A stretch of 32,000 nt of DNA from Patescibacteria group bacterium (GCA_041649575.1 JBAZMW010000005.1:30001-62000); one strand, 5' to 3'. Positions 1,273-31,884 are shown, counted from the stretch's first letter. Numbers and translations: made by a program. The notes: generated by a model not told the origin, from the letters alone.

Positions 1273-1866
1273 TCAGGTCGGGATCTGAAAGCCTCCTCGC
1301 TGATTCCGTTTGATCCTTTTCGACCCAAGGAGCCTCTTTATGGCCGCCCTTATCTGCCGGTTGACCTTGACCGTCGACAGGCTTCTGTCGAACAGCCAAT
1401 GGGTGGTTCCCAGTTCGGCCAGATTGTCCAGCAGGTACTTGTCGTCGACAGGCAGATCAGTATCAACCGCCAAGGCCTCATTGATCGCCTCGATCACAGC
1501 CGCGTCGCAGTCCGCCTCGGTCTCAATGAATCGTCTCGATGGCGGTTTGGAGTCTGACGGCGGATTGGGCTCGGATTTCCTTGGTGGCTTGGACTTTCTC
1601 GGCGGCTTGGGATCTGACGGCGGATCGGGATCGGGCTCTGGCTCGGGATCGGGCTTGGCCCTTTTTCCTTTCTTGATCACGCCGTTTTCCAGATGCATCT
1701 CGCCGGCCGGCTCCATAAAACTGAAAAGAACCTGCCGTACTTGGTTTTCGACAATCGTCGATCCTATCGTGGACACGTCGTAGCCGTATGTTGCCGCGTT
1801 CTTGGATATTGCTTCAAGCAATTCCTCGAACGTCAGGTTCCAAACAAACTGCTCCTCGACAGCCAA
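1273..1866 (-). CDS. hypothetical protein with a central P/D/K/S-rich repetitive linker
   Basis: 197-aa ORF starting at TTG, preceded by GGAGAAGG 6 nt upstream. Two globular ends are joined by PDPEPEPDPDPPSDPKPPRKSKPPRKSEPNPPSDSKPP, encoded by imperfect 18-nt tandem repeats at about 1549-1660. No recognisable domain. Confidence 0.55.
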   Translation of the reverse strand: MAVEEQFVWNLTFEELLEAISKNAATYGYDVSTIGSTIVENQVRQVLFSFMEPAGEMHLENGVIKKGKRAKPDPEPEPDPDPPSDPKPPRKSKPPRKSEPNPPSDSKPPSRRFIETEADCDAAVIEAINEALAVDTDLPVDDKYLLDNLAELGTTHWLFDRSLSTVKVNRQIRAAIKRLLGSKRIKRNQRGGFQIPT

Positions 1867-1957
1867 GACCAGCCTTCTCCAGTCATCGGAGACTTTCCCT
1901 GGATCAGTGGAATTCCTCGGCGTTTTCAGCCGGATGCTCCTGTCTCTCTCGCCCTTT

Positions 1958-2491
1958 TTAGGGGCGGCTACGAAAGGGGCGAGCGATTCCTCCTTCGACC
2001 ATGATTTTCATGGTCTCGCTCTTCTTAAGAGCTGTCAGGGCCGCGTCGAGACGACTCATGCACTTCGAAAATACCGCATCGTCGTCGTTCATTGCTGCGT
2101 TCTTGTGCCACCACTTGGCCAGGGCCTGACGGGTGTTCGTCGTGTCGTTGCCGCCGCAGATATGCTCGTAGAGCAGCCTGGACTTCTTTCCGTATTCGCT
2201 CTTTCCGCCCCCGGCCGTTGCAGCCTTCACCGACTTGGCCGGCCGACCGCGCTCACGCGGCGCTTTGGCCGCGGCTGCCTTCTGCGCCGGCCGTCCGTTT
2301 CTGAGGCCATGCAAGGAGTCAAGCAACTCTTGCAGCCGCTGATCCAGAAAGTCAAGAAGCCTACTCTTCCAATCATCCACGAGTTTCGAAGCCTCTTCGT
2401 CGGAAAGCAGCCTCTCGAGCAGACGAGCAGATCCCTCTATGTCAGCATCAGGATCGCCTGCCAGAATCCCCAACAACAGATTTCGCGCCAT
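1958..2491 (-). CDS. hypothetical protein (A/K/R-rich middle region)
   Basis: The track starts at GTG 2500, but GAGGAGG abuts that GTG directly and lies about 9 nt before the ATG at 2491 (MARNLLL...). I therefore take ATG 2491 as the start. No recognisable domain. Confidence 0.55.
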   Translation of the reverse strand: MARNLLLGILAGDPDADIEGSARLLERLLSDEEASKLVDDWKSRLLDFLDQRLQELLDSLHGLRNGRPAQKAAAAKAPRERGRPAKSVKAATAGGGKSEYGKKSRLLYEHICGGNDTTNTRQALAKWWHKNAAMNDDDAVFSKCMSRLDAALTALKKSETMKIMVEGGIARPFRSRP

Positions 2492-2565
2492 GGTTTTCAC
2501 CCTCCTCGCTAAATGTTCCGATATTTGTCTGTCTCACAGGGTGGCCGCTTAGCCATCCATGCCTT

Positions 2566-2596
2566 ATTCTTACACCAGATCATACATTTTAGTCAA
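2566..2596 (-). promoter_or_regulatory. candidate promoter for the 1958-2491 / 1273-1866 unit
   Basis: Minus strand reads TTGACT (2591-2596), 18 nt, TAAGAA(T) (2566-2572). The -10 is weak. Confidence 0.3.
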
Positions 2597-2672
2597 CAAA
2601 CCAGTTTTTGGCGGTTTTTACAAAAGTAGCCGGTAATTGCGATAAAATAATATAAGCCGGCTAGCGGCGGCG

Positions 2673-2714
2673 AAAAAATAGAATAAAAACAGAGCACGTC
2701 TCGCGACATGCTCT
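2673..2714 (-). terminator. intrinsic terminator after the 357-aa gene
   Basis: Hairpin AGAGCAcGTC-TCGC-GACaTGCTCT (2691-2714). On the minus strand it is followed by a GTTTTTATTCTATTTTTT run and lies 38 nt past the stop at 2752. Confidence 0.6.
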
Positions 2715-2751
2715 ATAGAATACAGAACGCTGAATGTACGACCAGCCCTTC

Positions 2752-3825
2752 TCACTGGATTGGTTGCACTGGTGGTGTCGGTGTTGGCGTCTCCTTGGCC
2801 TCCTTTGTTTCCCTGGTTACCCTCGGAATGAACAGGGGCATCACCGCTTCCCCTGCCGTTGACGAGACTCTGTCCTCGGAGACTTCTGCGCCGTACTGGC
2901 CGACAGACCCGTACTTCAGGCACTTACTGCTGTAGAGCGGGTTCTCGCAACGATAGGCGCCGATTTCCATGGGAGAACCGCCAGTAGCCAGCCGCATACA
3001 CAGATCGATGAACATCAGTTCGGGGAGCGTGGCGAATCTCACCGTCAAGTCTCGATGCAAGCGTTGCAGGTGCAGGAGTTCGAGCTGCTGTTCCTGCCAG
3101 GTGAGGCCTTCCAGCCAAAGGCTCTTGCCCTCATGACAAGCAGCCCAGGTGGGTATGGGCGCGAAGGCGTAGAAGTCTTCCAGCGGCCACTTATTACATG
3201 CCTCGGCGAATAATGTCGGAATGTCGGGGTTCTGCGGGTCGAACTGACGTAGCGCTGGCTGGAAGCCGAAGAATTGCTGGTTCAGTTCACTCTTGGAGAA
3301 GTCCGCTCCCCGTAAGAAGGCCACGGGCACCAGACCAGGGTGGATCCCGAGATATCTGCCGTCCGCCCAGCTTCCCTCCAGTTTACCTAGGCGCTTCGCC
3401 CAATAAATGGCACAATTGGGAAGGTCGTGGTTGTGACGAATCTTGCGTCTCACTCTGACCATCAGGGCCAGGGCCCCCAGAACCACGTGTGACCGGCTGA
3501 ATGGTTCGGGCAGAAAGGTCGCCGCGGTCATTTGACTCCGATACATGTGCAGCATGTGCTGCAACATTCGGAAACTCAAGGCGTCGGTGGTGGTGAGCTC
3601 GATCATTTGGGCAAAGAGGCCGGTGATCCAGTTGAGGTGCTCGAGTTCTTTCTTGTCCGGTTCTGGGTGTTCCTCGGCAAACTTCCCTAGGCTCTTCAGG
3701 ACAGGAGCTACCATCCTGATTTGCCCGTCCGTAAGCGACAGAAAGTTCAGCAGCAATTGCGCTAGCTGTCCTTGATCGCGAACGGCAGTTAATGCCGTCT
3801 TTAGCTCGTTTCTGACTTCTGTCAT
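2752..3825 (-). CDS. hypothetical protein, 357 aa, no recognisable domain
   Basis: ATG at 3825 with GGAGGAG 7 nt upstream. AAG-preferring codon usage. C-terminal T/P/E/K-rich tail. Confidence 0.65.
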   Translation of the reverse strand: MTEVRNELKTALTAVRDQGQLAQLLLNFLSLTDGQIRMVAPVLKSLGKFAEEHPEPDKKELEHLNWITGLFAQMIELTTTDALSFRMLQHMLHMYRSQMTAATFLPEPFSRSHVVLGALALMVRVRRKIRHNHDLPNCAIYWAKRLGKLEGSWADGRYLGIHPGLVPVAFLRGADFSKSELNQQFFGFQPALRQFDPQNPDIPTLFAEACNKWPLEDFYAFAPIPTWAACHEGKSLWLEGLTWQEQQLELLHLQRLHRDLTVRFATLPELMFIDLCMRLATGGSPMEIGAYRCENPLYSSKCLKYGSVGQYGAEVSEDRVSSTAGEAVMPLFIPRVTRETKEAKETPTPTPPVQPIQ

Positions 3826-6396: not shown

Positions 6397-7935
6397 ATGA
6401 ATGGAAACCAAACAATTATCATAAGTTATTTCGACCCTTCTTTGAAAGAAGAAGTGGATTCATTTGAGCAAAGATTAAAGAAACGTAAGATTTCTCTAAT
6501 CAAAACAAACCAAGGTATCCTGGAATCTAAAATTTTTTCTGGTGCGCCCTTACAACCTAAGGAAATTTTTGACCACACCCAGTATGCTGCTACTTTTGTG
6601 TTAGAATTCATTAAACTGTGTTTTAGTATTGGCGGTTTCTTGTCACTAACTTCTCAACTTATTAAGTTTATAAAGGGAATAAAACTTAAATCCAATAAAG
6701 ACGTTTTATTAATGAGTGAAATTGAAAGGGAAAAAAATTTCCCACTTAACATTTATTTTGCAATAAATAATAAAATAGCTGATAACAAAATTTTAGATGC
6801 TTTAAAAAAAATCCCCCTAACAATCAGTTTATTTAAAAATAATTTAAGTCGTTACAAAGATAGTGAAATTTTGGTTGTCTCTTATAATGAAAACCAAAAG
6901 TGCTGGGATTTAGAGAATCTAAAAGGATATAAACACAACCGCGGGCTATCTTGTTGGCGAGCGAATAGAACGATAAAAGGCCATGGGTTGGCAAGTAAAA
7001 AAGATGTTCCTGACAAACAATATCAAAATTTGTGGGAAATGCTTAATGATCCAATATCAGAAAAAGCCAAAACTAATGCCTTGAAATTTAAGGCTTCATA
7101 TTATCAGAGATTGTATACAATTCAGGACATTAAAATGGCTTTATCTGTTTGTCCTGTTACGATTAGTGTTGACATATTTAAAAGTTTTATGAATGCAAAA
7201 AATGGTATAGTGACTTTACCAAATATAAATGAAAAGAGAATCAGTGGCCATTCGGTGTTAATATGTGGATTTAATGATGATAAAAAAGTTTTTATTATTA
7301 ACAATGGTAGTTGGGGTAGAAAATGGGGTAATAATGGGCTTGGGTGTCTCCCGTTTTCTTATATTGAAAAGTATCTTATTGAAGCTTGGGGAATGCAATT
7401 ATTATTGGCTAACTTGATTAAACTTTCAATAAAAAATTTCTTTAAACTAAAATTTTTGAAAAGTTGTTTTGCCGACAGAAAAAATAAAGGAATATTAGAA
7501 AATGGTTTTATTAAAGATAAAAGGAATCTTACTATCAAGTATGAGGTTAAAAATGTTCAACCAATCGCTTTTTCAAGGGGTTCTTTTTTTATAATTAATA
7601 TATTTGATAACAAGGTAAAAGAAAAATATGGTGGATGGTCTCATTTCAGTTATGACTCCCAAAAAAGAATAATTGAGATCGAGGAATTACTAATTTCAGA
7701 AGAAAATAGAGGCTACGGCTGGGGCTCTGAAGCTATAAAAATAGTAGAAGAATATGCTAAAAAATGGCAAGTGGAAAAAATTATTGGCTGGGTGTCTATT
7801 GAAGATGCCTATAATGAAATTCAAAAAAATCTAATAGAAAAATTTTTTAAGCAAAATAATTATAGTTGCATTGATGATAACTTAAAATTTAGAGGTTGTC
7901 TTTTTAGATTTGAAAAATATTTATTAATCCAATAG
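6397..7935 (+). CDS. papain-like (C1) cysteine peptidase domain fused to a C-terminal GNAT acetyltransferase-like domain
   Basis: GLSCWRAN (catalytic Cys context like CGSCW), SGHSVLICGF (His) and NNGSWGRKWGNNGLG (NSWGxxWGxxG). The C-terminal ENRGYGWGSEAIKIVEEYAKK resembles GNAT motif A. The N-terminal 170 aa are unknown and include one hydrophobic helix. The gene is very AT-rich: two hand-counted 60-nt lines gave 19/60 and 13/60 G+C. Confidence 0.7.
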   Translation: MNGNQTIIISYFDPSLKEEVDSFEQRLKKRKISLIKTNQGILESKIFSGAPLQPKEIFDHTQYAATFVLEFIKLCFSIGGFLSLTSQLIKFIKGIKLKSNKDVLLMSEIEREKNFPLNIYFAINNKIADNKILDALKKIPLTISLFKNNLSRYKDSEILVVSYNENQKCWDLENLKGYKHNRGLSCWRANRTIKGHGLASKKDVPDKQYQNLWEMLNDPISEKAKTNALKFKASYYQRLYTIQDIKMALSVCPVTISVDIFKSFMNAKNGIVTLPNINEKRISGHSVLICGFNDDKKVFIINNGSWGRKWGNNGLGCLPFSYIEKYLIEAWGMQLLLANLIKLSIKNFFKLKFLKSCFADRKNKGILENGFIKDKRNLTIKYEVKNVQPIAFSRGSFFIINIFDNKVKEKYGGWSHFSYDSQKRIIEIEELLISEENRGYGWGSEAIKIVEEYAKKWQVEKIIGWVSIEDAYNEIQKNLIEKFFKQNNYSCIDDNLKFRGCLFRFEKYLLIQ

Positions 7936-8119
7936 TTTGTTCTAATATAATTACCAACCGTTAAATTAGGCGGCAGTTCGACTTTAGTCGGCTTTCAATG
8001 CCCACTAAAGTGCGATTACTAAATTTTTTTATCGTCCAACCCCGCCTCTTCAACGCCGCTTGGGGCGGGGCAAGAAGGCGGCATGTCCGGCAGATATCGT
8101 TCTGGCGGTTTTTATTAAT

Positions 8120-23289: not shown

Positions 23290-23604
23290 ATGTCATTTAC
23301 TAGAAAAAAAGAGGATTTTGTCTGCGGTAACTGCGGACACGAAGTTGAGGGCGACGGTTATACCAATCACTGTCCGAAGTGTTTATGGTCTAAGCATGTG
23401 GACAAGAATCCCGGCGATCGGCAAGAGGAATGCGGCGGGCTGATGAAGCCAGTTGATATATATCTGGAGCATCAAAATTGGATTATTGTGCATCAGTGTC
23501 AGACTTGCAGCGCCCAGAAGCGCAATCGAGTGAATGACGGCGATGATTTTGAAGAGGTGATCAGATTGGAAAAAGAAATAAATGACAAAAAAATAAAGGG
23601 CTAA
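23290..23604 (+). CDS. RNHCP domain-containing zinc-ribbon protein
   Basis: CGNCGHEV...GYTNHCPKCLWSKHVD...ECGGLM...HQCQTCS, which matches the RNHCP-domain pattern. Confidence 0.7.
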   Translation: MSFTRKKEDFVCGNCGHEVEGDGYTNHCPKCLWSKHVDKNPGDRQEECGGLMKPVDIYLEHQNWIIVHQCQTCSAQKRNRVNDGDDFEEVIRLEKEINDKKIKG

Positions 23605-23628
23605 AAATAATTGGATTGCTATTAAAAG

Positions 23629-23659
23629 TAGCGTTTTAGGCGCTATTTTTTATTTTTTT
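23629..23659 (+). terminator. intrinsic terminator after the RNHCP gene
   Basis: TAGCG(23629-23633)/CGCTA(23641-23645) short stem followed by a long T-run TTTTTTATTTTTTT. Confidence 0.45.
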
Positions 23660-23660
23660 A

Positions 23661-23712
23661 AGTTATCCACAGAAAAGCTATTGACCATAAATATTAAAAG
23701 AGTTAGTATAAT
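23661..23712 (+). promoter_or_regulatory. promoter module P1 (DnaA-box 9-mer plus TTGACC-17-TAGTATAAT)
   Basis: AGTTATCCACAG (23661-23672, containing the consensus DnaA box TTATCCACA), CTATTGACC (-35 at 23681-23686), a 17-nt spacer, then TAGTATAAT (23704-23712). It is paralogous to 28820-28881. Confidence 0.6.
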
Positions 23713-23715
23713 TAT

Positions 23716-23972
23716 ACGAACATTGGAAGGCCTAGTGAGAGAATCTAGGGAGTAGAAACTCTCACAGAAAAGGCGAGTGCCCTCTATGTACTCAACACCG
23801 CGGAACTTTCCAGGGTTCCAACCATCACGCATTGTACTGGACGAGAGGAGTACACAGGGTAACTCAACGTTGCAAACCGCTAGCTCACGACCCGAGCGCG
23901 CATCCGAAGCGTTTAGCAACGCACATCACTCCCATCGCCGAGACCATCGCAAGACGGTCTCTTCCTTTTTTT
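23716..23972 (+). ncRNA. candidate structured RNA 1 (unclassified, about 255 nt); sRNA or orphan riboswitch-like leader
   Basis: It lies between promoter P1 and a terminator. It is GC-rich relative to its flanks and has several self-complementary segments: GTGAGAG/CTCTCAC, TGTACT/AGTACA and GTTGCAAACCGCT/AGCGTTTAGCAAC. Only implausible ORFs overlap it. Ends are approximate (plus or minus 5 nt). Confidence 0.5.
23940..23972 (+). terminator. intrinsic terminator of candidate RNA 1
   Basis: GAGACC(23940-23945)/GGTCTC(23956-23961) with a 10-nt loop, followed by TTCCTTTTTTT. Confidence 0.65.
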
Positions 23973-24056
23973 ATGAAAAATTTTTGATTTTAATTTTTTA
24001 AAGGTAGTAAGGGATTATATTAGAGACATGAATTTATTAAGTCATTTTTTAGATAC

Positions 24057-24102
24057 AAAAAAAGACGGGCATGGAGAGTGAGATTCAACTCTCCGCCCGT
24101 CT
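24057..24102 (-). terminator. intrinsic terminator ending the cassette 3 operon
   Basis: Long hairpin AGACGGGCaTGGAGAGT / ACTCTCC-GCCCGTCT (24063-24102), followed on the minus strand by a TTTTTTT run. It lies 26 nt past the stop at 24128. Confidence 0.7.
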
Positions 24103-24127
24103 TCGTGAGGTGCAAAGGCCACTATCG

Positions 24128-25336
24128 TCAGAATTTCCACGCCGTTTCGGCGAAACAGCGTGGATTTTCTCGATATTGACCCATGAAGGTGTCCTTTTCT
24201 CCCAAAGGCACACCCAGGCCAGCCTTAACCTCGAAGTCGTCCTTCCTCCAAGTCAGGGACGGTTCAAAGTAGGCGTCGCCGTGTTCAAGGTTCAGAGAGC
24301 CGCTGAGCTCCACCGACCAACGACCCGTGTCATTGGGAGTATACTTTATCCGGTAGAGCAGGGCTCCGTCGAGGCCTCGACGAAAGTCTTTCGCCCGGAA
24401 CAAATCCGGGGTTTCTTTCCGAGTCTCGACTTCGAAAGCGTACTGCAGCAGGACAGACAAGCTGTCTGTTTTCCTGAATGGCTTGTTCCATTCGTGATCC
24501 ACTCCCACGACACACTGGAGGAAATCGTCGGCGTTCTTCTGTCTGAAGTAGCCGGCTTCGGCGCGCAGGTTGTAGCCGCTAGAGATTTCCGTCGCCAGGG
24601 AGATGGCGATGACTTGTTCTTCGCGGTAGGTGGGAATAATCTGTTTCGGTAGCTTCAGCTCAAACGACGGAGTGTAGCTCAAGCCGTCGTAGAAGCTTGC
24701 GCCCAGGTCCCAGCCCTTTATTGTACAACCAGCACGAAGCGCGAGTTGGCCGTGGCCGTTTTCTGGTTCGCCTAGCTCCAGATTGTTTGGGAGCGCTTGT
24801 CCCCAACGTTCACTGGCAGGGAGTCTTGACGGGGTGAACCACGGAACGTAGACCAGTTCCAGGTACTTGTCATAGCCTAGGCGGATATCAACGGCTGGCA
24901 CTCCCATTCTCTCCCAGTCAATAACATCTGTCAGGTCGCGGGGACAGATATTGTCGTTTGGCGAGACGGTGTCGGTCACCGACCAGTCGAATACCTGTTT
25001 GCCAAGACGTAGCCGAAGCCACTTCCAAGAGGTTTCTGCGTACAGTTCCCTCGCGCCGACTATCGGTCGGTGTCCAGTCGAGTCGTCGAACACGCCTTGG
25101 GCAAATCCGGCGCTGTCCAAGCGAAGGTCGCCTTCGGCATGAATTAGGAAATGCTTTGAGAATACGGCCGTCACCTTTGGCTTAAGCCGCATTTCTGCAA
25201 AAGCATCTTCCGCTTCACTGGACTTGTGGCTGAAATAGCCATCTCCCCGCAACTCGAGCTGCCCGCCGGTTTTCCATTCCAACCCTTGGGCGACTAGCGA
25301 CAGGGAGATCAGGAGCAGGATAGTAGTACCTTTCAT
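24128..25336 (-). CDS. beta-barrel outer-membrane-type protein (porin-like), third gene of the exporter operon
   Basis: Signal peptide MKGTTILLLISLSLVAQG, amphipathic strand pattern rich in Y/W/F/G, and a C-terminal ETAWKF ending in Phe. AAGGAG lies 7 nt upstream, and the start is 4 nt from the upstream stop. Confidence 0.65.
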   Translation of the reverse strand: MKGTTILLLISLSLVAQGLEWKTGGQLELRGDGYFSHKSSEAEDAFAEMRLKPKVTAVFSKHFLIHAEGDLRLDSAGFAQGVFDDSTGHRPIVGARELYAETSWKWLRLRLGKQVFDWSVTDTVSPNDNICPRDLTDVIDWERMGVPAVDIRLGYDKYLELVYVPWFTPSRLPASERWGQALPNNLELGEPENGHGQLALRAGCTIKGWDLGASFYDGLSYTPSFELKLPKQIIPTYREEQVIAISLATEISSGYNLRAEAGYFRQKNADDFLQCVVGVDHEWNKPFRKTDSLSVLLQYAFEVETRKETPDLFRAKDFRRGLDGALLYRIKYTPNDTGRWSVELSGSLNLEHGDAYFEPSLTWRKDDFEVKAGLGVPLGEKDTFMGQYRENPRCFAETAWKF

Positions 25337-25340
25337 CGCG

Positions 25341-26117
25341 TTACTCCTTTGTCAGGTGAGCGGTTGTGAAGATGGAAGGCTCAATAGAGTCAGGAAACTC
25401 TCTCTTCACGACTCGCAACACAGTCGTCCTTCCTAGCGCGACATTCTCAATCGCGGTAGCGCCAGCTCGCCATAGCCCGCCTTCTTTTGCTTCGACGTCT
25501 TTGTTGACAAGCGTTTTGACTAGCCTGTCGGCTTGGTCGTAGAAGCGAATCTCCCTGGTGATGAAGCTTCTATCTATCAGAAAGACCCTCTTTCCGTAGC
25601 CGGATTTGATTCCAGGCTTGGATCGCGCTTCAACCGCCCAGACGCCCTCCTTGCACTCCAGTGTCTGGTAATCGAAGTCATCGAGGCGTTCGCCGGTGAG
25701 TTGCCTGGCGTCCTCGTAGCTGAAATCAGTCCCGGCGAAATACTTACTCTCGTCACCGACAGAGATTCGTCGAACCTTGTCGAACGATGGCAGCTTGAGC
25801 CATAGGTCGTCAGCATTTCCCGGATGACGGTTGACCAGCAGGCCTAACCCGCGATCCATGGCTGGTTCGCCAAAGATCATGCACGTCTTGTCCTCGCCAT
25901 TTGGCTCGAACAAGATCCAGCGAGTATAGGCCTTTTCCGTCTTCCGGCCGCTGTATCCCGTCACGACGACTTGCACGTTCTCGATTTCGTAGACTGACTG
26001 GCGATACAGCTGCCAGCTTTTGCCTACGATTTCTCGGCCGTTGTCGGTGGTGGTTTGCGCCGAAGCGACAACTGTCGACAACATGGCCGCTATTACTATT
26101 AGCATGGTTTTCTTCAT
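25341..26117 (-). CDS. LolA-like outer membrane lipoprotein-sorting protein family
   Basis: The true start is the ATG at 26117 (GGGAGA 6 nt upstream), giving signal peptide MKKTMLIVIAAMLSTVVASAQ. The block LWLKLPSFDKVRRISVGDESKYFAGTDFSYEDA matches the LolA_like family signature (LPxxxxVRRISxxxxxxxFxGSDFxYED). The 71-codon N-terminal extension in the track overlaps the MMPL gene and is rejected. Confidence 0.8.
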   Translation of the reverse strand: MKKTMLIVIAAMLSTVVASAQTTTDNGREIVGKSWQLYRQSVYEIENVQVVVTGYSGRKTEKAYTRWILFEPNGEDKTCMIFGEPAMDRGLGLLVNRHPGNADDLWLKLPSFDKVRRISVGDESKYFAGTDFSYEDARQLTGERLDDFDYQTLECKEGVWAVEARSKPGIKSGYGKRVFLIDRSFITREIRFYDQADRLVKTLVNKDVEAKEGGLWRAGATAIENVALGRTTVLRVVKREFPDSIEPSIFTTAHLTKE

Positions 26118-26179
26118 GTTGTGTCTCCCGATGTGGTTGAGCCGGGCAAGCAACCAAAGGTTGCCGCCCGGCTTGTTTC

Positions 26180-28627
26180 TCATTTCTTTTCTCGCCCTAC
26201 CACGCAGAGTGGCAGAGCGGCCAGCATGGCCACCATGGCGCCGAAGCCGCAAGCGATTAGCATGGCAATCATCACCCATCCCAGCCGTGCGACCGGAATG
26301 AAATTTGATGCCGTAAGAGGCAAGAAACAAAAGCAGTTCAGCGTAATGTCAACCAAAACCGCTCGTCCCTTGTCTCTCATACTGCCTCGCAGCGCTTCAA
26401 GTCGGCCTGTGGTCTGGATGATCGGTTGATACGCAGCTACCAAGTACAAGCCGAAGTCCATGGCCGCGTTTATCGCCATGGCGGTAACGCAGGCAGTGGC
26501 TTGGTCTAGCGGTATTCTTAGTACCATCATTAATACAGCGATGACCGCAGTAGCGAAGATAAACGGCACGTTCATGACCAGTCCGGTGCGCCAGCTGCTA
26601 AGGCACGTCGTACCTCCTCTTATTCCGCGGTTGCGCCAGAAGATCCAGAGCCCGCAGATAATAGCGACAATCCATTGCGAAGTCAGCAGGTTTAGCGGCT
26701 TGCCTTCACGGATGTATTTGTCGTTACGAGGATAGATCGGTACTTTGCCAAACGGCAAGATTTGCAGTCCGGGAAATTGCTCTCCCAGTTCTCTTATCTC
26801 GTCGCAGAGCTGGCCCAGGACATTGGAGTCTTCCATGGCTGTAGAGGCAAAGATCACGACCCCTTGGTCGAACCACAGTTGTTGCTGCACTGGTGGTCCT
26901 ACGTCCCAGGAGATGATCTCCCAGATGTCGTGAGCTTGCTGAGTGGTTGTTGGCCACTTTACGCCATATGACTCTCGCGATACCACGCCGACCGTGTCTA
27001 GAGCGGATTTGACTTCTCGGACATTGGCCAGCCTGGCGATCGCGTTTTGGAACTCGACCGCTTTTTGGATGAAGGCGGGGTCGTCCACCGTTGTCGCTCT
27101 TGAGGGCATAACCAGGACTGACACGCGGTCGAAACCGTACCTGTCGTTCTCGTTGAGGAATTTGCTGGCGCGATATACTATCGTGCCAGGGATATATTCC
27201 AAGGGTCTGGTCCGGACTTCTATGAAGTCAAAGTCCTTGCTAACCCCAGGGATATAATCCAAACTGATCATGCCGATCGTGGCAACAACCAGCGCCCCAA
27301 CCAGAGACAGTGACAGCCAGCCAATCTTTCGGTAGGCAAAGCGCCCTTTCTTGTTTCGGCCGATGACAGCGGTGATCAGACGGACGATGCCACAGAGGAA
27401 TCTGTCCCAGATCGCCGCCGCCCAGGCTATACGACTCAGACTGTTTTTCACAGATACCGCTTCGCCACCCACCAACGAGTGGAGGGCTGGCAAAAACAGT
27501 AGTGATAACAGGATGAGATACGCGATGCCGAGACTGGCGAAAATCCCTACCTCCATAATTCCTCTGACGCCGATCTGGTAGAGGGTCAGGAAGTTGAGGA
27601 TGGCAATCAGCGCTGTCACGCCTATCACGCCATTGATGGATCGGGATCGGCGCCAGACAGCAGCCATCGTGGCCTGGTTGTCGGCTAGTCGGTTTTCGTT
27701 GTAGGCACAGAACTTGTGCACTGCGAACGAAATGCCGGCTACGATGATGGCGGTGTCAACCAGCAGGAAATACACCCGTTCGTAAACAGGCAGTCCTGCT
27801 ATTTGTGCCAGCCCGATTGATCCCCGCGCCCAGATAAAGCAGATCAAAACCACGAGAGTGGCAATCACTGCCTGTCTTAGCGATCTTAGAGACACCCAGG
27901 CGATGAGGCAGACAAGACCCAGTCCGATCGTAGACAGCCTCATGACGTCGGCTGTAAGCGAAGAGAAGATCAGGCCTCGGCCAATCACCCAGCCAGCCGG
28001 CATGACTCTTTCGAATCTGCCTGTCGGCTTAATGTCTGACTTGAAAAACCACTCCCATTCGGGGATCTCCCTCTGCTCCAGCATATTCGCCACGTTTCGA
28101 AACGTCTTCATCTCCTCGTAGCCGACCGGTAGCAGCAGGATTATTTGGGAGTAATCAAATTCTTTCCCAATCAGCAGGCCGTATACCCCGGAATCCCGGC
28201 GAACATCAGCTTTCCATCTTTCGATGTCAAACCGAGGATCGTCCAGGAGTTTCTGGGATATGTAGGGGTCACTGGAGAGAGCGTCACCAGTGTCTTGGTA
28301 GTGGGCCGCTTTGGACAAACTCAGAATTCCAAAACCCGGAAAGCTTTTTTCCAGCGTTTCCGTGAACCAAGAGACGTACTCCATGTCTTCTTTGGTGATG
28401 GCTTTTGGAAACTGAACTACGAAAGAAATGGCATCTCCGGTTTTCAGGCCTTGAGAAGCCAGTCCTTTCACTCGTTCATCTAGGAGGCGGTAGGGGTCTT
28501 GCTTGTTAAGCAGGGCGTCGTCGAGATCTCCCGCTTTTTTGACGTAGAGATTGCCATACAACATCGGTACGGTCAATACCAATACGGCGATCACTACAAC
28601 CAGAGCAAAACGCTTGTCGTGCTTCAT
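26180..28627 (-). CDS. RND-superfamily exporter, MMPL/HAE3-like
   Basis: 815 aa with the two-fold architecture TM1, large extracytoplasmic loop, TM2-6, repeated once. The hydrophobic bundles are typical of MMPL-type transporters. GGGAGGA lies 7 nt upstream of the ATG. Confidence 0.8.
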   Translation of the reverse strand: MKHDKRFALVVVIAVLVLTVPMLYGNLYVKKAGDLDDALLNKQDPYRLLDERVKGLASQGLKTGDAISFVVQFPKAITKEDMEYVSWFTETLEKSFPGFGILSLSKAAHYQDTGDALSSDPYISQKLLDDPRFDIERWKADVRRDSGVYGLLIGKEFDYSQIILLLPVGYEEMKTFRNVANMLEQREIPEWEWFFKSDIKPTGRFERVMPAGWVIGRGLIFSSLTADVMRLSTIGLGLVCLIAWVSLRSLRQAVIATLVVLICFIWARGSIGLAQIAGLPVYERVYFLLVDTAIIVAGISFAVHKFCAYNENRLADNQATMAAVWRRSRSINGVIGVTALIAILNFLTLYQIGVRGIMEVGIFASLGIAYLILLSLLFLPALHSLVGGEAVSVKNSLSRIAWAAAIWDRFLCGIVRLITAVIGRNKKGRFAYRKIGWLSLSLVGALVVATIGMISLDYIPGVSKDFDFIEVRTRPLEYIPGTIVYRASKFLNENDRYGFDRVSVLVMPSRATTVDDPAFIQKAVEFQNAIARLANVREVKSALDTVGVVSRESYGVKWPTTTQQAHDIWEIISWDVGPPVQQQLWFDQGVVIFASTAMEDSNVLGQLCDEIRELGEQFPGLQILPFGKVPIYPRNDKYIREGKPLNLLTSQWIVAIICGLWIFWRNRGIRGGTTCLSSWRTGLVMNVPFIFATAVIAVLMMVLRIPLDQATACVTAMAINAAMDFGLYLVAAYQPIIQTTGRLEALRGSMRDKGRAVLVDITLNCFCFLPLTASNFIPVARLGWVMIAMLIACGFGAMVAMLAALPLCVVGREKK

Positions 28628-28720
28628 GTTCTATATCCTCCCGAAGCCATTTCAGGCCCCGTAGTTTAGGTCTTAATTGTCAACGTTCTTGGCTTTAAGT
28701 TGCTTTTTAAGCAACTATTA

Positions 28721-28749
28721 ATATTAACATATTTATTTTTTTATGTCAA
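28721..28749 (-). promoter_or_regulatory. promoter of the cassette 3 exporter operon
   Basis: Minus strand reads TTGACA (28744-28749), 17 nt, TAATAT (28721-28726). The predicted 5'-UTR of about 85 nt starts in the AGTTGCTTTTTAAGCAACT hairpin. Confidence 0.55.
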
Positions 28750-28819
28750 GTATTATTAAAGTAATATTATCTTTAAAATGCTGTTATAAATATTTTATTT
28801 TGTTAATATTTTATTTTTG

Positions 28820-28881
28820 AGTTATCCACAGCTATTGATTTTATTGCTATTGACAAACTTATATTTTTTTGCTAGTATAAT
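28820..28881 (+). promoter_or_regulatory. promoter module P2 (DnaA-box 9-mer plus TTGACA-17-TAGTATAAT)
   Basis: AGTTATCCACAG (28820-28831), a duplicated CTATTGA, -35 TTGACA (28850-28855), a 17-nt spacer, then TAGTATAAT (28873-28881). It is divergent from the exporter promoter. Confidence 0.6.
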
Positions 28882-28884
28882 CAT

Positions 28885-29066
28885 ACTAAGTAGTGTACCT
28901 TGGCTTCATCTTTGGGCAGCTCTCTATAGTAGGGGTAGAGGGCAAGTAGTTGTGAGGCCGATTGCTGCGGCGATCGCGACCAAAATCGACAGGGCGGACC
29001 TAGTTCGCCCATCCCCTCATTCTGAAGTGGCTGGCACAGGTATGTGTTCAGCCCCTTTTTTGTTTA
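28885..29066 (+). ncRNA. candidate structured RNA 2 (unclassified, about 180 nt)
   Basis: It lies between promoter P2 and a terminator. Local hairpins are GCTCTCTA/TAGAGGGC, GCCG/CGGC and GGGCG/CGCCC. Only an implausible ORF (28817-29101) overlaps it. Ends are approximate. Confidence 0.45.
29029..29066 (+). terminator. intrinsic terminator of candidate RNA 2
   Basis: GGCTGgCACA / TGTGttCAGCC hairpin (29029-29053) followed by CCTTTTTTGTTT. Confidence 0.55.
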
Positions 29067-29078
29067 AGTGGTTAGATG

Positions 29079-29107
29079 TTGACAAAATTTTATACTTGTG
29101 ATACAAT
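29079..29107 (+). promoter_or_regulatory. promoter of the methyltransferase cassette
   Basis: TTGACA (29079-29084), 17 nt, TACAAT (29102-29107). Confidence 0.55.
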
Positions 29108-29176: not shown

Positions 29177-30145
29177 ATGTCGCACAGAGGAAGTCTAGGA
29201 AGACTTTTGCGACGCCATCCCGCGTCGCCAAAAGTAGCAGCCGAGATGATTCGTCGTCGCACCAGGATTCACTTCGCGCAAGTCACTGACGATTTGATTC
29301 CGGATGCCTTCGAGATATACGAAGGGGATTGTTTCAAGACCGCGATCAAGAAGCATCCCAGGGTGAAAGGGTTCATAAAGGATTTCTGGCGGTGGAATGA
29401 ATACGCCTTGTCGCTTATGAACCAGAACTCATTCCCCTACATCAGCATGCAGCAGCTTCTGGCCAAGATGATCGCTCCCTTTACCGGGGAAGTTCTGGCC
29501 GACATCGGCTGTGGCGCTGGTGATTTCTGTGCTCGTTTGCTTCAGCAAGACGGACACTGGATCCGGAAGATCTTCGCTGTCGATATTGATGCTTGGGGCT
29601 CACTCGCCAGGGTGCCGCAGACTCTCAAGGATGCTGGGTACAGGGGGAAAGTGGCCTTGGCTCAAGACTCGACGATGTCCAGACTGCCAATCTGGGACGA
29701 AACCGTGGACTGTGTTGTTTCCAGTCTGGGCGGTGTCACCTATGCGGGTTGGTGGTTCGAAGACGGCGAGCTGGTTTGTGAAGGAAGGGAGGCACTGCGG
29801 AGAAGCCTGAAAGACATCCGTCGCATTCTGAAGCCGGGTGGGTATCTAGGATTTTCAGGTTTGATGCCGAATCCCGACTTCATGATGATCTTCAAGTATT
29901 CGCTGTGGGAGCCGCTACGTCACTGTCGCCTCAAGCCGTTGTGGATGACTCTTAAGCACGGCTTGCGGATCAAGAAGATCTCCGCTTTCATGCACGAGTG
30001 TGAGTGCAAGCAGACCGCGCACTACCTCACCCTGGAGGAGTGGGCTGCTTATCTAAAGGAAGCGGGATTCGAAGTTGTCGACGCTAGCGTCGGCGAGTCG
30101 TACGCTAAGCAGGGCATCGTAGTAGTCGCACGTAAGGTCAGTTGA
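29177..30145 (+). CDS. class I SAM-dependent methyltransferase
   Basis: Motif I LADIGCGAGDF, acidic residue after beta-2 (FAVDID) and post-II/III LKPGGYLGFSG. AAGGAGA lies 7 nt upstream. AAG/TTC/ATC codon preference. The roughly 110-aa N-terminal extension is of unknown function. Confidence 0.8.
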   Translation: MSHRGSLGRLLRRHPASPKVAAEMIRRRTRIHFAQVTDDLIPDAFEIYEGDCFKTAIKKHPRVKGFIKDFWRWNEYALSLMNQNSFPYISMQQLLAKMIAPFTGEVLADIGCGAGDFCARLLQQDGHWIRKIFAVDIDAWGSLARVPQTLKDAGYRGKVALAQDSTMSRLPIWDETVDCVVSSLGGVTYAGWWFEDGELVCEGREALRRSLKDIRRILKPGGYLGFSGLMPNPDFMMIFKYSLWEPLRHCRLKPLWMTLKHGLRIKKISAFMHECECKQTAHYLTLEEWAAYLKEAGFEVVDASVGESYAKQGIVVVARKVS

Positions 30146-30240: not shown

Positions 30241-31884
30241 ATGGATATAAGAAACATAATTTTATTTATTGTATCGGTTTTGGATATAATCGTAGCGCTG
30301 GTTATATTTATTCATAACCCCAAAAAGGTTATGAATATAGCTTATTCTCTGACTGCTGTCTGGGCTGGCTTGTGGGGTTTTGGCATTGCAATGTTTAGGA
30401 TGTCCACTATTCACTTAGAACAATTGGTTTGGAACCAGTTTTTTATTTTTGTAGCGGCGTTGGTCGGCAGCGGTTTTTTACACTTCTCTTTGGTTTTCGG
30501 CGACAAGGCCGCAAAGTTGGATTTGAGAAGGTTTATATTGGTATACGCCCCTAATCTGATAGTTTTATGGGCAGTTTTGACTCCGGGAGTCATGATTAAG
30601 GATATCGTTGTCAGGAGCTGGGGCAACGAGAGTATTTTGGGTTGGGGCTATATTTATTACGGCTTGTATTTTGCCTTGTTGTGGCTGTGGGCGACTTTCA
30701 ACTTGTTTAAAAAATATGCTAAAGGCGAACCATCCCTAAGACAACAAATACTTTTTATCTATATTGGCATTGGCGTATCAATAGTTTTTGGCGCCACCTT
30801 TAACCTGATTTTTATTTTACTGGGCAATTATCAATACATTTGGCTGGGGCCATATGCCATGTTTTGCTTTGTTATCGCCACTTCTTATGCGGTGGCCAAA
30901 CATCAGCTATTGGATATAAAGGTGGTGACAACAGAAATTTTTGCTATCTTTTTGAGTCTGTTGACCTTTTCCGATCTGTTCAGGACTAGTGGTGGTTGGG
31001 AGTTTTCCGGAAAATTAGCTTTATTTTTATTAACTTTATTTTTTTCCATCCTTCTCATCCGCTCTGTCCTAAATGAAGTTCGCCGCCGCGAAGAAATGGA
31101 AAAACTCACCGAAGAATTAAAAAAGACCACCAAGAAGTTGGCTTCTGCCAACAAGGAACTGGAAAGGCTGGACGAAGCCAAGTCGGAATTTTTGTCCATC
31201 GCCAGCCACCAGCTGCGCACTCCCTCCACCATTATCAAAGGCTATATTTCCATGATGCTCGAGGGCAGTTTTGGCAAGGTGCCAAAAATAATCAAAGAGA
31301 ATTTAGATAAGGTCTATATTTCCAACGAGCGCTTGTTAAATTTGATAGAAACATTATTAAATATTTCCCGCATTGAATCTGGCCGACTAGAATTCAACAC
31401 CCAGCCGGTGGATTTGGTGAAGACCATCGAGCCGATTGTGGCCGACTTTCAGAAGAAGGCCAAGGAGAAGGGCTTGAAACTGGAATTTAGAGCCGAAAAA
31501 GATATCCCACAGGCCAAGGCCGACCCGCAGAAAGTCAAGGAAGTGATTTCCAACCTGATAGACAACTCTGTCAAATATACCAAGGAGGGTGAGGTGATTA
31601 TCGGTTTGCATCAGGAGGGCCAGTCGGTGGTTTTTACCTGCCAGGACACGGGTATTGGCATTGATCCAGAAGATGTGCCGCGGCTGTTTAATAAGTTTGT
31701 GCGCGGCAAGGGCATGATGCAGGTGTATACCGAAGGCACGGGCTTGGGACTATACTTCGCGCGGATGGTGATAGAAAATATGGGCGGCCGTATTTGGGCG
31801 GAATCGCCAGGCAAAGGCAAGGGCAGCAAATTTTCTTTTTCTCTGACGATGGCCGATAAAAATAAGGCTAAGAAAGTGAGCTAG
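30241..31884 (+). CDS. sensor histidine kinase with an N-terminal 7TM-type membrane domain
   Basis: About 7 N-terminal TM helices, a coiled coil, H-box SIASHQLRTP, N-box ISNLIDNSVKYT, G1 DTGIGI and G2 GTGLGL. Confidence 0.9.
   Translation: MDIRNIILFIVSVLDIIVALVIFIHNPKKVMNIAYSLTAVWAGLWGFGIAMFRMSTIHLEQLVWNQFFIFVAALVGSGFLHFSLVFGDKAAKLDLRRFILVYAPNLIVLWAVLTPGVMIKDIVVRSWGNESILGWGYIYYGLYFALLWLWATFNLFKKYAKGEPSLRQQILFIYIGIGVSIVFGATFNLIFILLGNYQYIWLGPYAMFCFVIATSYAVAKHQLLDIKVVTTEIFAIFLSLLTFSDLFRTSGGWEFSGKLALFLLTLFFSILLIRSVLNEVRRREEMEKLTEELKKTTKKLASANKELERLDEAKSEFLSIASHQLRTPSTIIKGYISMMLEGSFGKVPKIIKENLDKVYISNERLLNLIETLLNISRIESGRLEFNTQPVDLVKTIEPIVADFQKKAKEKGLKLEFRAEKDIPQAKADPQKVKEVISNLIDNSVKYTKEGEVIIGLHQEGQSVVFTCQDTGIGIDPEDVPRLFNKFVRGKGMMQVYTEGTGLGLYFARMVIENMGGRIWAESPGKGKGSKFSFSLTMADKNKAKKVS

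Follow-up and report, generated by a model that had tools for sequence, protein, structure and literature searches.

In Escherichia coli, the small-RNA gene micF adjoins the outer membrane protein (OMP) gene ompC and is divergent from it, and at E. coli nrdAB, boxes just 5' of the -35 element can activate and repress. Regulation is poorly understood in Patescibacteria (the candidate phyla radiation, CPR), whose genomes are tiny and in which few regulators are known and hardly any non-coding RNAs have been characterised. We analysed a 32,000-nt stretch of a Patescibacteria metagenome-assembled genome (JBAZMW010000005.1:30001-62000; hereafter the window), in which two similar promoter modules, each with a DnaA box, lie on either side of a three-gene exporter cassette and are followed by predicted non-coding transcripts, designated RNA1 and RNA2. 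DnaA regulates promoters via upstream DnaA boxes, according to three papers (PMC13438810, PMC6015884, PMC5835720). A preprint describes a riboswitch-terminated transcript that acts in trans, with SAM-I as the example (bioRxiv 10.1101/803072).

The main new result concerns RNA2, which, as judged by comparative analysis, is the local member of a clade-restricted small-RNA family that is not in Rfam 15 and has a promoter that retains the DnaA box in several Patescibacteria genomes. The locus as a whole is read here, with moderate confidence, as two small-RNA genes under probable DnaA control, one of them from a new RNA family.

RNA2 and its small-RNA family

RNA2 is a predicted non-coding transcript of ~178 nt (28885..29062, plus strand) that belongs to a conserved family of structured small RNAs and ends in an intrinsic terminator composed of a GC-rich hairpin and a U-run (29029..29061, plus strand). 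Its minimum free energy (MFE) z-score was -1.85 relative to shuffles. Related contigs were found via methyltransferase homologues, and RNA2 homologues were present at the same syntenic position, next to an OMP gene, in L057 (two tandem copies), L058, L059, L091 and L092. Each of these five contigs carries a sigma-70-type promoter, an RNA with the common strands, and a terminator. The common strands are GGGGCAAG(C/U)AGU(C/U)GUGAGG and (U)UGACCAAAGCGA(C/U)A, separated by a variable hairpin; as conserved strands of the family they read GGGGCAAGYAGUCGUGAGG and UUGACCAAAGCGAYA. In L057, the closest relative (methyltransferase 64% identical), the RNA2-type motif occurs twice in tandem within one predicted transcript (L057:2520-2840), and the second copy has a hairpin (P3, described below) like that of RNA2 in the window. 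The 5' leader of RNA2 itself contains a short internal tandem duplication (28897-28925; CCUUGGCUUC and CUUUGGGCAGCUC).

A covariance model was built from five homologous copies and used to search 471 kb. It matched six copies only, five with E = 1e-16 to 1e-23 and the second L057 copy with E = 2e-4; no match was obtained in 37 other CPR loci, nor in L052, L053 and L093-L099. We assign RNA2 of the window to the family because of a 27-nt blast match (E = 6e-6), synteny and manual alignment. When aligned by hand, L093 fits the same pseudoknot architecture and is a distant member; for L052 and L053 no convincing fit was obtained. In these more distant relatives (L052:4476-4745, L053:14784-14975 and L093:800-1020), the methyltransferase promoter is directly preceded by a unit of promoter, structured RNA (~160-215 nt) and terminator, with very different sequences. 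A metagenome scan with the methyltransferase alignment returned three loci, namely L052 and L053, which were already in the set, and L056, a 1-kb fragment in which the RNA model found no match. Phage origin was considered and rejected: when viral contigs were scanned for the conserved 16-mer GCAAGYAGTYGTGAGG, 31 matches resulted, which we attribute to chance because the partner strand was missing in all of them.

The family core spans ~95-125 nt, and in RNA2 it was placed at 28915..29022 (plus strand) by hand alignment and RNAalifold. A 5' hairpin, Pa (28919-25 with 28937-43), is followed by the short helix P1b (28949-52 with 28987-90), a GG/CC step (28956-57 with 28980-81), the P2 hairpin (28958-76) and the P3 hairpin (28992-29010). 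P1 (28930-36 with 29012-18), recognised by inspection, is formed by the Pa loop and the 3' tail immediately preceding the terminator, and makes an H-type pseudoknot with Pa. The two conserved strands form P1b together with a 3x4 internal loop; P2 is variable, P3 is optional, and the intrinsic terminator follows. Three copies, those of the window and L093 and the second one of L057, carry P3 at one and the same junction, each with its own sequence. When RNAalifold was run on a plain MAFFT alignment, Pa, P1b (GUCG/CGAY), the GG/CC step and P2 were predicted independently.

Support for the pairing comes from compensatory variation. The sequence of P1 varies by genome, being GCAGAG/CUCUGC, GGGGA/UCCCC, GAGAGA/UCUCUC, AGGGG/CCCCU or GGAAGA/UCUUCC. 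For a quantitative comparison, eight copies were aligned by hand, the rows were verified against the real sequences, and the alignment was passed through MAFFT with N padding. In this alignment, which was fitted to the structure and of whose eight sequences two are nearly identical, 94.6% of cells were paired compared to 85.6 +/- 1.4 in column shuffles (0 of 500 reached the observed value), and 8 of 20 pairs had changes on both sides where 3.6 were expected. Slid controls gave 34-52% paired, and in the P1 pseudoknot 5 of 7 pairs had changed on both sides. A separate script gave the same picture. By these comparisons, the RNA2 family has a conserved, covarying and pseudoknotted core, as predicted from the aligned copies.

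No known RNA accounted for either transcript. Rfam 15 gave no match in the whole window at the gathering threshold and nothing meaningful at E<=10 on short slices of RNA1, RNA2 and the L057 tandem copy, so that neither RNase P, signal recognition particle (SRP) RNA, 6S RNA, transfer-messenger RNA (tmRNA) nor any other Rfam family was recognised downstream of the modules. ARAGORN found no tRNA or tmRNA. The conserved strands were also compared with the consensus sequences of the c-di-GMP-I, Mn2+ and ZTP riboswitches, of SRP domain IV and of the k-turn; none fitted in register or had Rfam support. Small proteins were rejected as products, the open reading frames (ORFs) being short, overlapping the promoter or terminator and lacking a Pfam match at E<=1. 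A literature search on the motif strings, on DnaA boxes in CPR and on small RNAs of Patescibacteria found nothing relevant.

The promoter modules and their DnaA box

The two modules (23661-23712 and 28820-28881) are direct repeats on the plus strand, with a T-run, AGTTATCCACAG, GCTATTGAC (the -35 element), a 17-nt spacer and TAGTATAAT in common order. The -10 element, TAGTAT, is part of TAGTATAAT and is followed by (T/C)ATAC in both. The shared elements that the first-pass annotation of this DNA had listed were found in both modules where it had placed them. The 12-mer AGTTATCCACAG has two exact copies in the window, both on the plus strand, and the exact 9-mer TTATCCACA, which is the consensus DnaA box, occurs in the window only within them. 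In module 1 the 12-mer lies at 23661..23672 (9-mer at 23663-23671), 9 nt 5' of the -35 element and centred at ~-49, and the core promoter (23681..23712) consists of TTGACC at 23681, the 17-nt spacer and TAGTAT(AAT). In module 2 the 12-mer lies at 28820..28831 (9-mer at 28822-28830), 19 nt 5' of the -35 element and centred at ~-59, and the core promoter (28832..28881) contains GCTATTGA twice, TTGACA at 28850, the 17-nt spacer and TGC-TAGTAT(AAT). Both modules have the layout of a sigma-70-type promoter, namely -35 and -10 elements with a spacer of 16-18 nt.

The resemblance between the modules is indeed greater than chance, as first proposed: local alignment of the promoter regions scored 36, compared to 19.8 +/- 3.1 and a maximum of 32 in 300 shuffles. 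Similarity extends from about -75 to +20 and ends ~20 nt into the transcript. By this measure the modules are true paralogues. Within module 2, GCTATTGA is duplicated with a period of 15 nt (28832-28854), a detail absent from the first-pass annotation, and the duplication explains the 19-nt gap between box and -35 element, compared to 9 nt in module 1. The two gaps are one helical turn apart, yet the longer one stems from the duplication. Modules 1 and 2 were closer to each other than either was to the orthologous promoters of related contigs; therefore, the best reading of module 1 is that it was copied recently, within this genome, from the RNA2 promoter.

We then considered the box in related DNA, comprising the window and ten related contigs (166 kb). 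Five exact TTATCCACA boxes were present, compared to ~1.9 expected anywhere by chance, and all five lay upstream of the -35 element of an RNA2-type or module promoter, in one orientation and with a gap of 8, 9 or 19 nt. These are module 1 (9 nt) and module 2 (19 nt) of the window, L052 (19 nt), L091 (8 nt) and L092 (8 nt); in L059, a box with one mismatch lies 9 nt from the -35 element. At the orthologous RNA promoter, which has TTGACA, a 17-nt spacer and TATAAT, the box is thus kept, exactly or with one mismatch, in four contigs (L091, L092, L059 and L052) from three lineages. The proposal that a consensus DnaA box stands upstream of both -35 elements is borne out, and its placement appears to be non-incidental. 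In L059 (8818-8860), the one-mismatch box is situated between divergent -35 hexamers, with TTGACA of the OMP gene 3 nt to its left and TTGACA of the RNA gene 9 nt to its right, so that one bound protein could act on both promoters.

The pattern AGTTATCCACAG-N25-50-TAGTATAAT was also scanned in one genome per bacterial species. It occurred at 50 loci (L002-L051), of which ~35 were in Patescibacteria. Some of these loci are origin or dnaA regions with several boxes, which indicates that CPR DnaA boxes follow the standard consensus. At other CPR loci, the box and promoter lie 5' of genes whose N-termini resemble dnaA, nrdR, mraZ or rnpA, and many membrane-protein genes are also among those behind the pattern. 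As the pattern is mostly Patescibacterial and precedes dnaA-, nrdR- and mraZ-like genes, DnaA-box operators may be widespread at CPR promoters, and the data suggest that many promoters of Patescibacteria employ the box in the manner of a DnaA operator. We found no literature description of such operators as a common device in this group, nor of DnaA-regulated promoters there.

Rfam analysis of 36 CPR loci with the pattern detected RNase P, rRNA and tRNAs, none of them directly behind the module, and most downstream features were protein genes. The module is therefore not a generic promoter of housekeeping RNAs in these loci; had it been one, the first proposal would have been undermined. Nor does the window look like an origin of replication (oriC): it has two single boxes 5.2 kb apart and no dnaA gene, and no sign change of GC skew occurs near the modules. 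Along most of the window the cumulative GC skew increases.

RNA1, the exporter cassette and the history of the locus

RNA1 is a predicted non-coding transcript of ~257 nt (23716..23972, plus strand) that is GC-rich and folds better than shuffles (MFE z-score -2.99; better than all 200). It has its own intrinsic terminator (23940..23972, plus strand; GAGACCATCGCAAGACGGTCTC and then a T-run). Both RNA1 and RNA2 are GC-rich within an A/T-rich intergenic setting, and the initial description of the two downstream regions as GC-rich, terminated and devoid of a plausible ORF agrees with our results. The transcribed parts of RNA1 and RNA2 could not be aligned, and we rejected the idea that they are full-length paralogues on that ground. 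What stands of the proposed repeated RNA-expression module is that the promoters are paralogous and that both downstream regions look like stand-alone non-coding units; the two transcripts are not demonstrably the same kind of RNA. RNA1 as the remnant of a replaced OMP gene was likewise rejected, as tblastn with five OMP proteins found nothing there.

A weak resemblance to the family core was seen within RNA1 (23840..23913, plus strand), in the form GACG-AGA-GG, 55 nt, CC-GAAG-CGUU. The motif is similar to the core, with U-A flipped to A-U in P1b. The MFE fold of RNA1 places the core-like bases in another helix, and a relaxed descriptor, which was designed after the RNA1 match had been seen, recovered RNA1 and 3 background matches in 1.64 Mb. 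Two RNA units also occur in each of the nearest relatives, L057 with its tandem pair and L058 with an additional small RNA of a different kind, and for this reason a diverged second copy is plausible, though not shown, for RNA1. The body of RNA1 would be either a paralogue that has diverged strongly or a structured sequence without relation to RNA2. Within the locus, module 1 with its predicted RNA1 is the only part that appears specific to this genome.

The second small-RNA unit of L058 (9724-9895) is directly 5' of the methyltransferase promoter. Its own promoter consists of TTGACA, 17 nt and TACAAT, with TTTCCACA in the spacer, and its transcript of ~135 nt contains four (C/U)AGUCG(U/C) repeats, one of which is presented in a hairpin loop (MFE z-score -3.84). 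The RNA2-family model did not match this RNA. Upstream of it, at L058:9150-9700, ~550 nt of GC-rich DNA without a called gene may be a decayed gene.

The gene order around the modules is S1 (minus strand), RNHCP (plus), module 1 with RNA1 (plus), the 402-aa protein, LolA-like protein and MMPL exporter genes (all minus), module 2 with RNA2 (plus), methyltransferase (plus) and HisKA_7TM kinase (plus). The RNHCP gene (23290-23604, plus strand; Pfam RNHCP) ends in an intrinsic terminator with a 12-bp stem and a T-run (23624..23650, plus strand), and the T-run continues into an A/T-rich stretch 5' of module 1. The three-gene cassette (24128..28627, minus strand) comprises genes for the 402-aa protein (24128-25336), the LolA-like protein (25341-26183) and the MMPL/RND-like exporter (26180-28627). 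A mechanical ORF for the LolA-like protein (25341-26330) overlaps the MMPL gene by 150 nt; the gene call of the source contig starts at the equivalent of 26183 (280 aa). The cassette has an intrinsic terminator (24043..24117; hairpin and T-run on the minus strand) and a promoter (28721..28749, minus strand) with TTGACA, 17 nt and TAATAT, with TG. Module 1 is convergent with the 3' end of the cassette and module 2 is divergent from the cassette promoter at a distance of ~70 bp, just as had been described. Downstream of the RNA2 terminator are the methyltransferase promoter (29079..29107, plus strand; TTGACA, 17 nt, TACAAT, with TG) and the conserved neighbours methyltransferase (29177-30145, plus strand) and HisKA_7TM histidine kinase (30241-31884, plus strand), which served to locate the relatives. 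The methyltransferase and the MMPL exporter of the window are 100% identical to NCBI proteins of a 'Patescibacteria group bacterium', encoded on a contig of 113,686 bp, and the source contig is seen in SRR8542065. Base composition of the window is strongly mosaic, with 33% GC at 1-1000, 56-58% at 1500-3500 and 29% at 7000-8000.

The backbone of FtsH, S1, RNHCP, methyltransferase and kinase genes is common to L059, L091 and L092, and partly to L057 and L058. Between RNHCP and methyltransferase, the relatives have a Toluene_X/FadL-type OMP gene on the minus strand and no three-gene cassette. The 402-aa protein of the window is 45% identical to the product of the third cassette gene of L053 and unrelated to Toluene_X proteins. 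As the relatives carry a Toluene_X OMP gene in this interval, the MMPL/LolA-like cassette appears to have replaced another gene. The first-pass suggestion that the modules mark the boundaries of acquired DNA holds in part: a cassette did, by this comparison, replace the OMP gene, whereas module 2 with RNA2 is present in relatives without the cassette and is therefore read as ancestral and not as a boundary element.

Toluene_X/FadL-type and MMPL/LolA-like proteins are normally tied to the outer membrane or to lipid trafficking, and Patescibacteria are usually described as having no outer membrane. The MMPL exporter and LolA-like protein of the window (within 24128-28627) and the Toluene_X/FadL-type beta-barrels at L057:1187-2380, L059:7557-8756, L091:5396-6577 and L092:7886-9067 are unexpected in this group.

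Alternative readings and comparison with known systems

As a mechanism, we propose that a strong sigma-70-type promoter would drive RNA2, with a single consensus DnaA box immediately 5' of its -35 element. DnaA would bind the box at ~-49 or -59 and modulate RNA polymerase, which would couple the level of the RNA to replication or growth status. The RNA may then work in trans by binding a protein or small ligand via the conserved internal loop and junctions, and not by long antisense pairing. The present arrangement would have arisen when the MMPL/LolA-like cassette replaced the OMP gene adjoining the RNA gene. In its fullest form, the RNA2 family would be a new ligand- or protein-binding class of pseudoknotted RNA, whose DnaA-set synthesis relays a replication-initiator signal to envelope/lipid-transport and methyltransferase/kinase functions, and RNA1 would be a rapidly diverging second copy. 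We put this forward tentatively and think it rather unlikely to hold in every part.

Several results count against the reading of two DnaA-controlled small-RNA genes. The orthologous promoters of L057, L058, L053 and L093 lack the box, and those that have it have one only. None of the relatives yielded an RNA1 homologue, and the family model scored 1.8 bits on RNA1 (351 nt; E = 1.5), which is not significant. Even RNA2 of the window gave only a weak local match to the covariance model (13.6 bits, E = 1.9), which we ascribe to its P3 insert and short P2. The family sample amounts to 8 motif copies on 7 contigs, two of them near-identical, and the pseudoknot statistics carry the qualification given with them. 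Duplexfold comparisons with the starts of neighbouring genes gave long non-specific duplexes and no consistent target. Finally, we infer the transcription starts, the RNA ends, DnaA binding and the cell-cycle link from sequence only.

Another way to read the RNA2 family is as cis-acting, riboswitch-like leaders, in which a metabolite aptamer is followed by a terminator that attenuates read-through into methyltransferase, 3-hydroxyacyl-CoA dehydrogenase (3HCDH) and kinase genes; the terminated transcripts may additionally act in trans. Covarying helices, a pseudoknot and nucleotide conservation at the junctions and internal loop make up a typical riboswitch pattern, and the tandem motif pair of L057 in one transcript, the terminator directly after the P1 3' strand and the position 5' of the same methyltransferase gene cluster in most loci are in keeping with it. 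Terminators are present in all RNA2 orthologues. However, in 8 of the 9 RNA-bearing loci examined (the window, L052, L053, L057, L059, L091, L092 and L093) the RNA terminator and the following gene are separated by a second, near-consensus promoter. The first RNA of L058 had no visible one behind it, and that locus fits the leader model. The next gene varies, being the methyltransferase, 3HCDH or a 207-aa protein, and two contigs with a methyltransferase homologue have no RNA upstream of it. For these reasons we favour an independent small-RNA gene over a classical riboswitch. No obvious antiterminator alternative was found and no Rfam riboswitch class matched, and we consider a leader function unlikely, while a ligand-binding role is possible because of the conservation pattern, the pseudoknot and the tandem copy. 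It is much less credible that the transcripts are divergent housekeeping RNAs (6S, SRP, RNase P or tmRNA) missed by Rfam models, or that they encode small proteins. CPR RNAs are often divergent and the length of RNA2 (~180 nt) is like that of 6S RNA, but Rfam at E<=10 and ARAGORN found nothing here while Rfam does find RNase P, rRNA and tRNAs in other CPR loci. Moreover, a fold of several helices with a pseudoknot does not resemble the 6S rod, no family member turned up beyond a narrow clade in the 471 kb searched, and the ORFs have the shortcomings noted above; we hold this explanation to be very improbable.

The other alternatives concern the promoters and RNA1. RNA1 might be non-functional, a copy of the RNA2 promoter having come to lie beside leftover DNA at the cassette edge, where it yields a fortuitously structured and terminated transcript. 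The lack of RNA1 homologues in relatives, in which the gap from RNHCP to the OMP gene is only ~40-50 nt, the non-significant model match and the end of module similarity ~20 nt into the transcript all accord with such an origin. It explains less readily that RNA1 has a strong terminator of its own, is GC-rich in an A/T-rich setting and outfolds 200 of 200 shuffles, that it is not an OMP-gene remnant and contains a weak core-like motif, and that the closest relatives also have two RNA units. We regard a non-functional RNA1 as a serious possibility, though on balance a doubtful one. The box, for its part, might be the site of another factor, or an A/T-rich upstream element of a strong constitutive promoter, and the modules merely a duplicated promoter. 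A single box per promoter without a cluster, and its absence from four contigs that keep the RNA, would be expected if so. Yet the 9-mer is exact in four independent promoters and has one mismatch in a fifth (L091 and L092 counted once, the window modules separately), its orientation and position are kept while the surrounding sequence diverges, and no other exact box occurs in the 166 kb. The consensus is also that of CPR origin and dnaA regions, and in other CPR genomes a box and promoter arranged in this way lie 5' of dnaA- and nrdR-like genes; a box unrelated to DnaA thus seems to us quite unlikely. The reading as two small-RNA genes under probable DnaA control is the one retained for the comparisons below.

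On that reading, a structured RNA at a fixed position, with a pseudoknot and a conserved DnaA box, offers a way to study how replication status may be coupled to other functions in Patescibacteria. The conserved DnaA site at the RNA2-type promoter hints at a link to DNA replication, and the RNA2 family is a candidate new entry for RNA family databases.

Compared with DnaA-regulated promoters such as E. coli nrdAB, dnaA and uvrB and Pseudomonas aeruginosa gidA, the modules are alike in that the consensus TTATCCACA stands beside a sigma-70-type promoter outside the origin. They differ in that the predicted product is a small structured RNA and not a protein gene, in having a single box at ~-49 or -59, and in that the host is a Patescibacterium. 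With stand-alone structured small RNAs that work by a folded motif and not by antisense pairing, for example protein-binding RNAs such as 6S or CsrB-type sponges, RNA2 shares its own strong promoter and terminator, a conserved structured core, a tandem motif in L057 and the lack of a long ORF. Unlike these, it matched neither 6S nor CsrB nor any other Rfam family in sequence or structure, and within the DNA searched its own family is confined to a narrow clade of Patescibacteria.

Pseudoknotted riboswitch aptamers resemble the family in their H-type pseudoknot, conserved junctions and covarying helices, and in a terminator right after the core, tandem arrangement and a position 5' of a methyltransferase gene. 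The family differs from them in the separate promoter of the downstream gene at 8 of 9 loci, in matching no class and in showing no antiterminator. The arrangement in micF/ompC is closest to that of the five relatives, in which the RNA gene and a Toluene_X/FadL-type OMP gene are transcribed away from each other. In contrast to micF, no convincing complementarity to the neighbouring mRNA was found with duplexfold, the neighbour in the window is the MMPL cassette, and the conserved parts of the RNA are structured, with no exposed seed.

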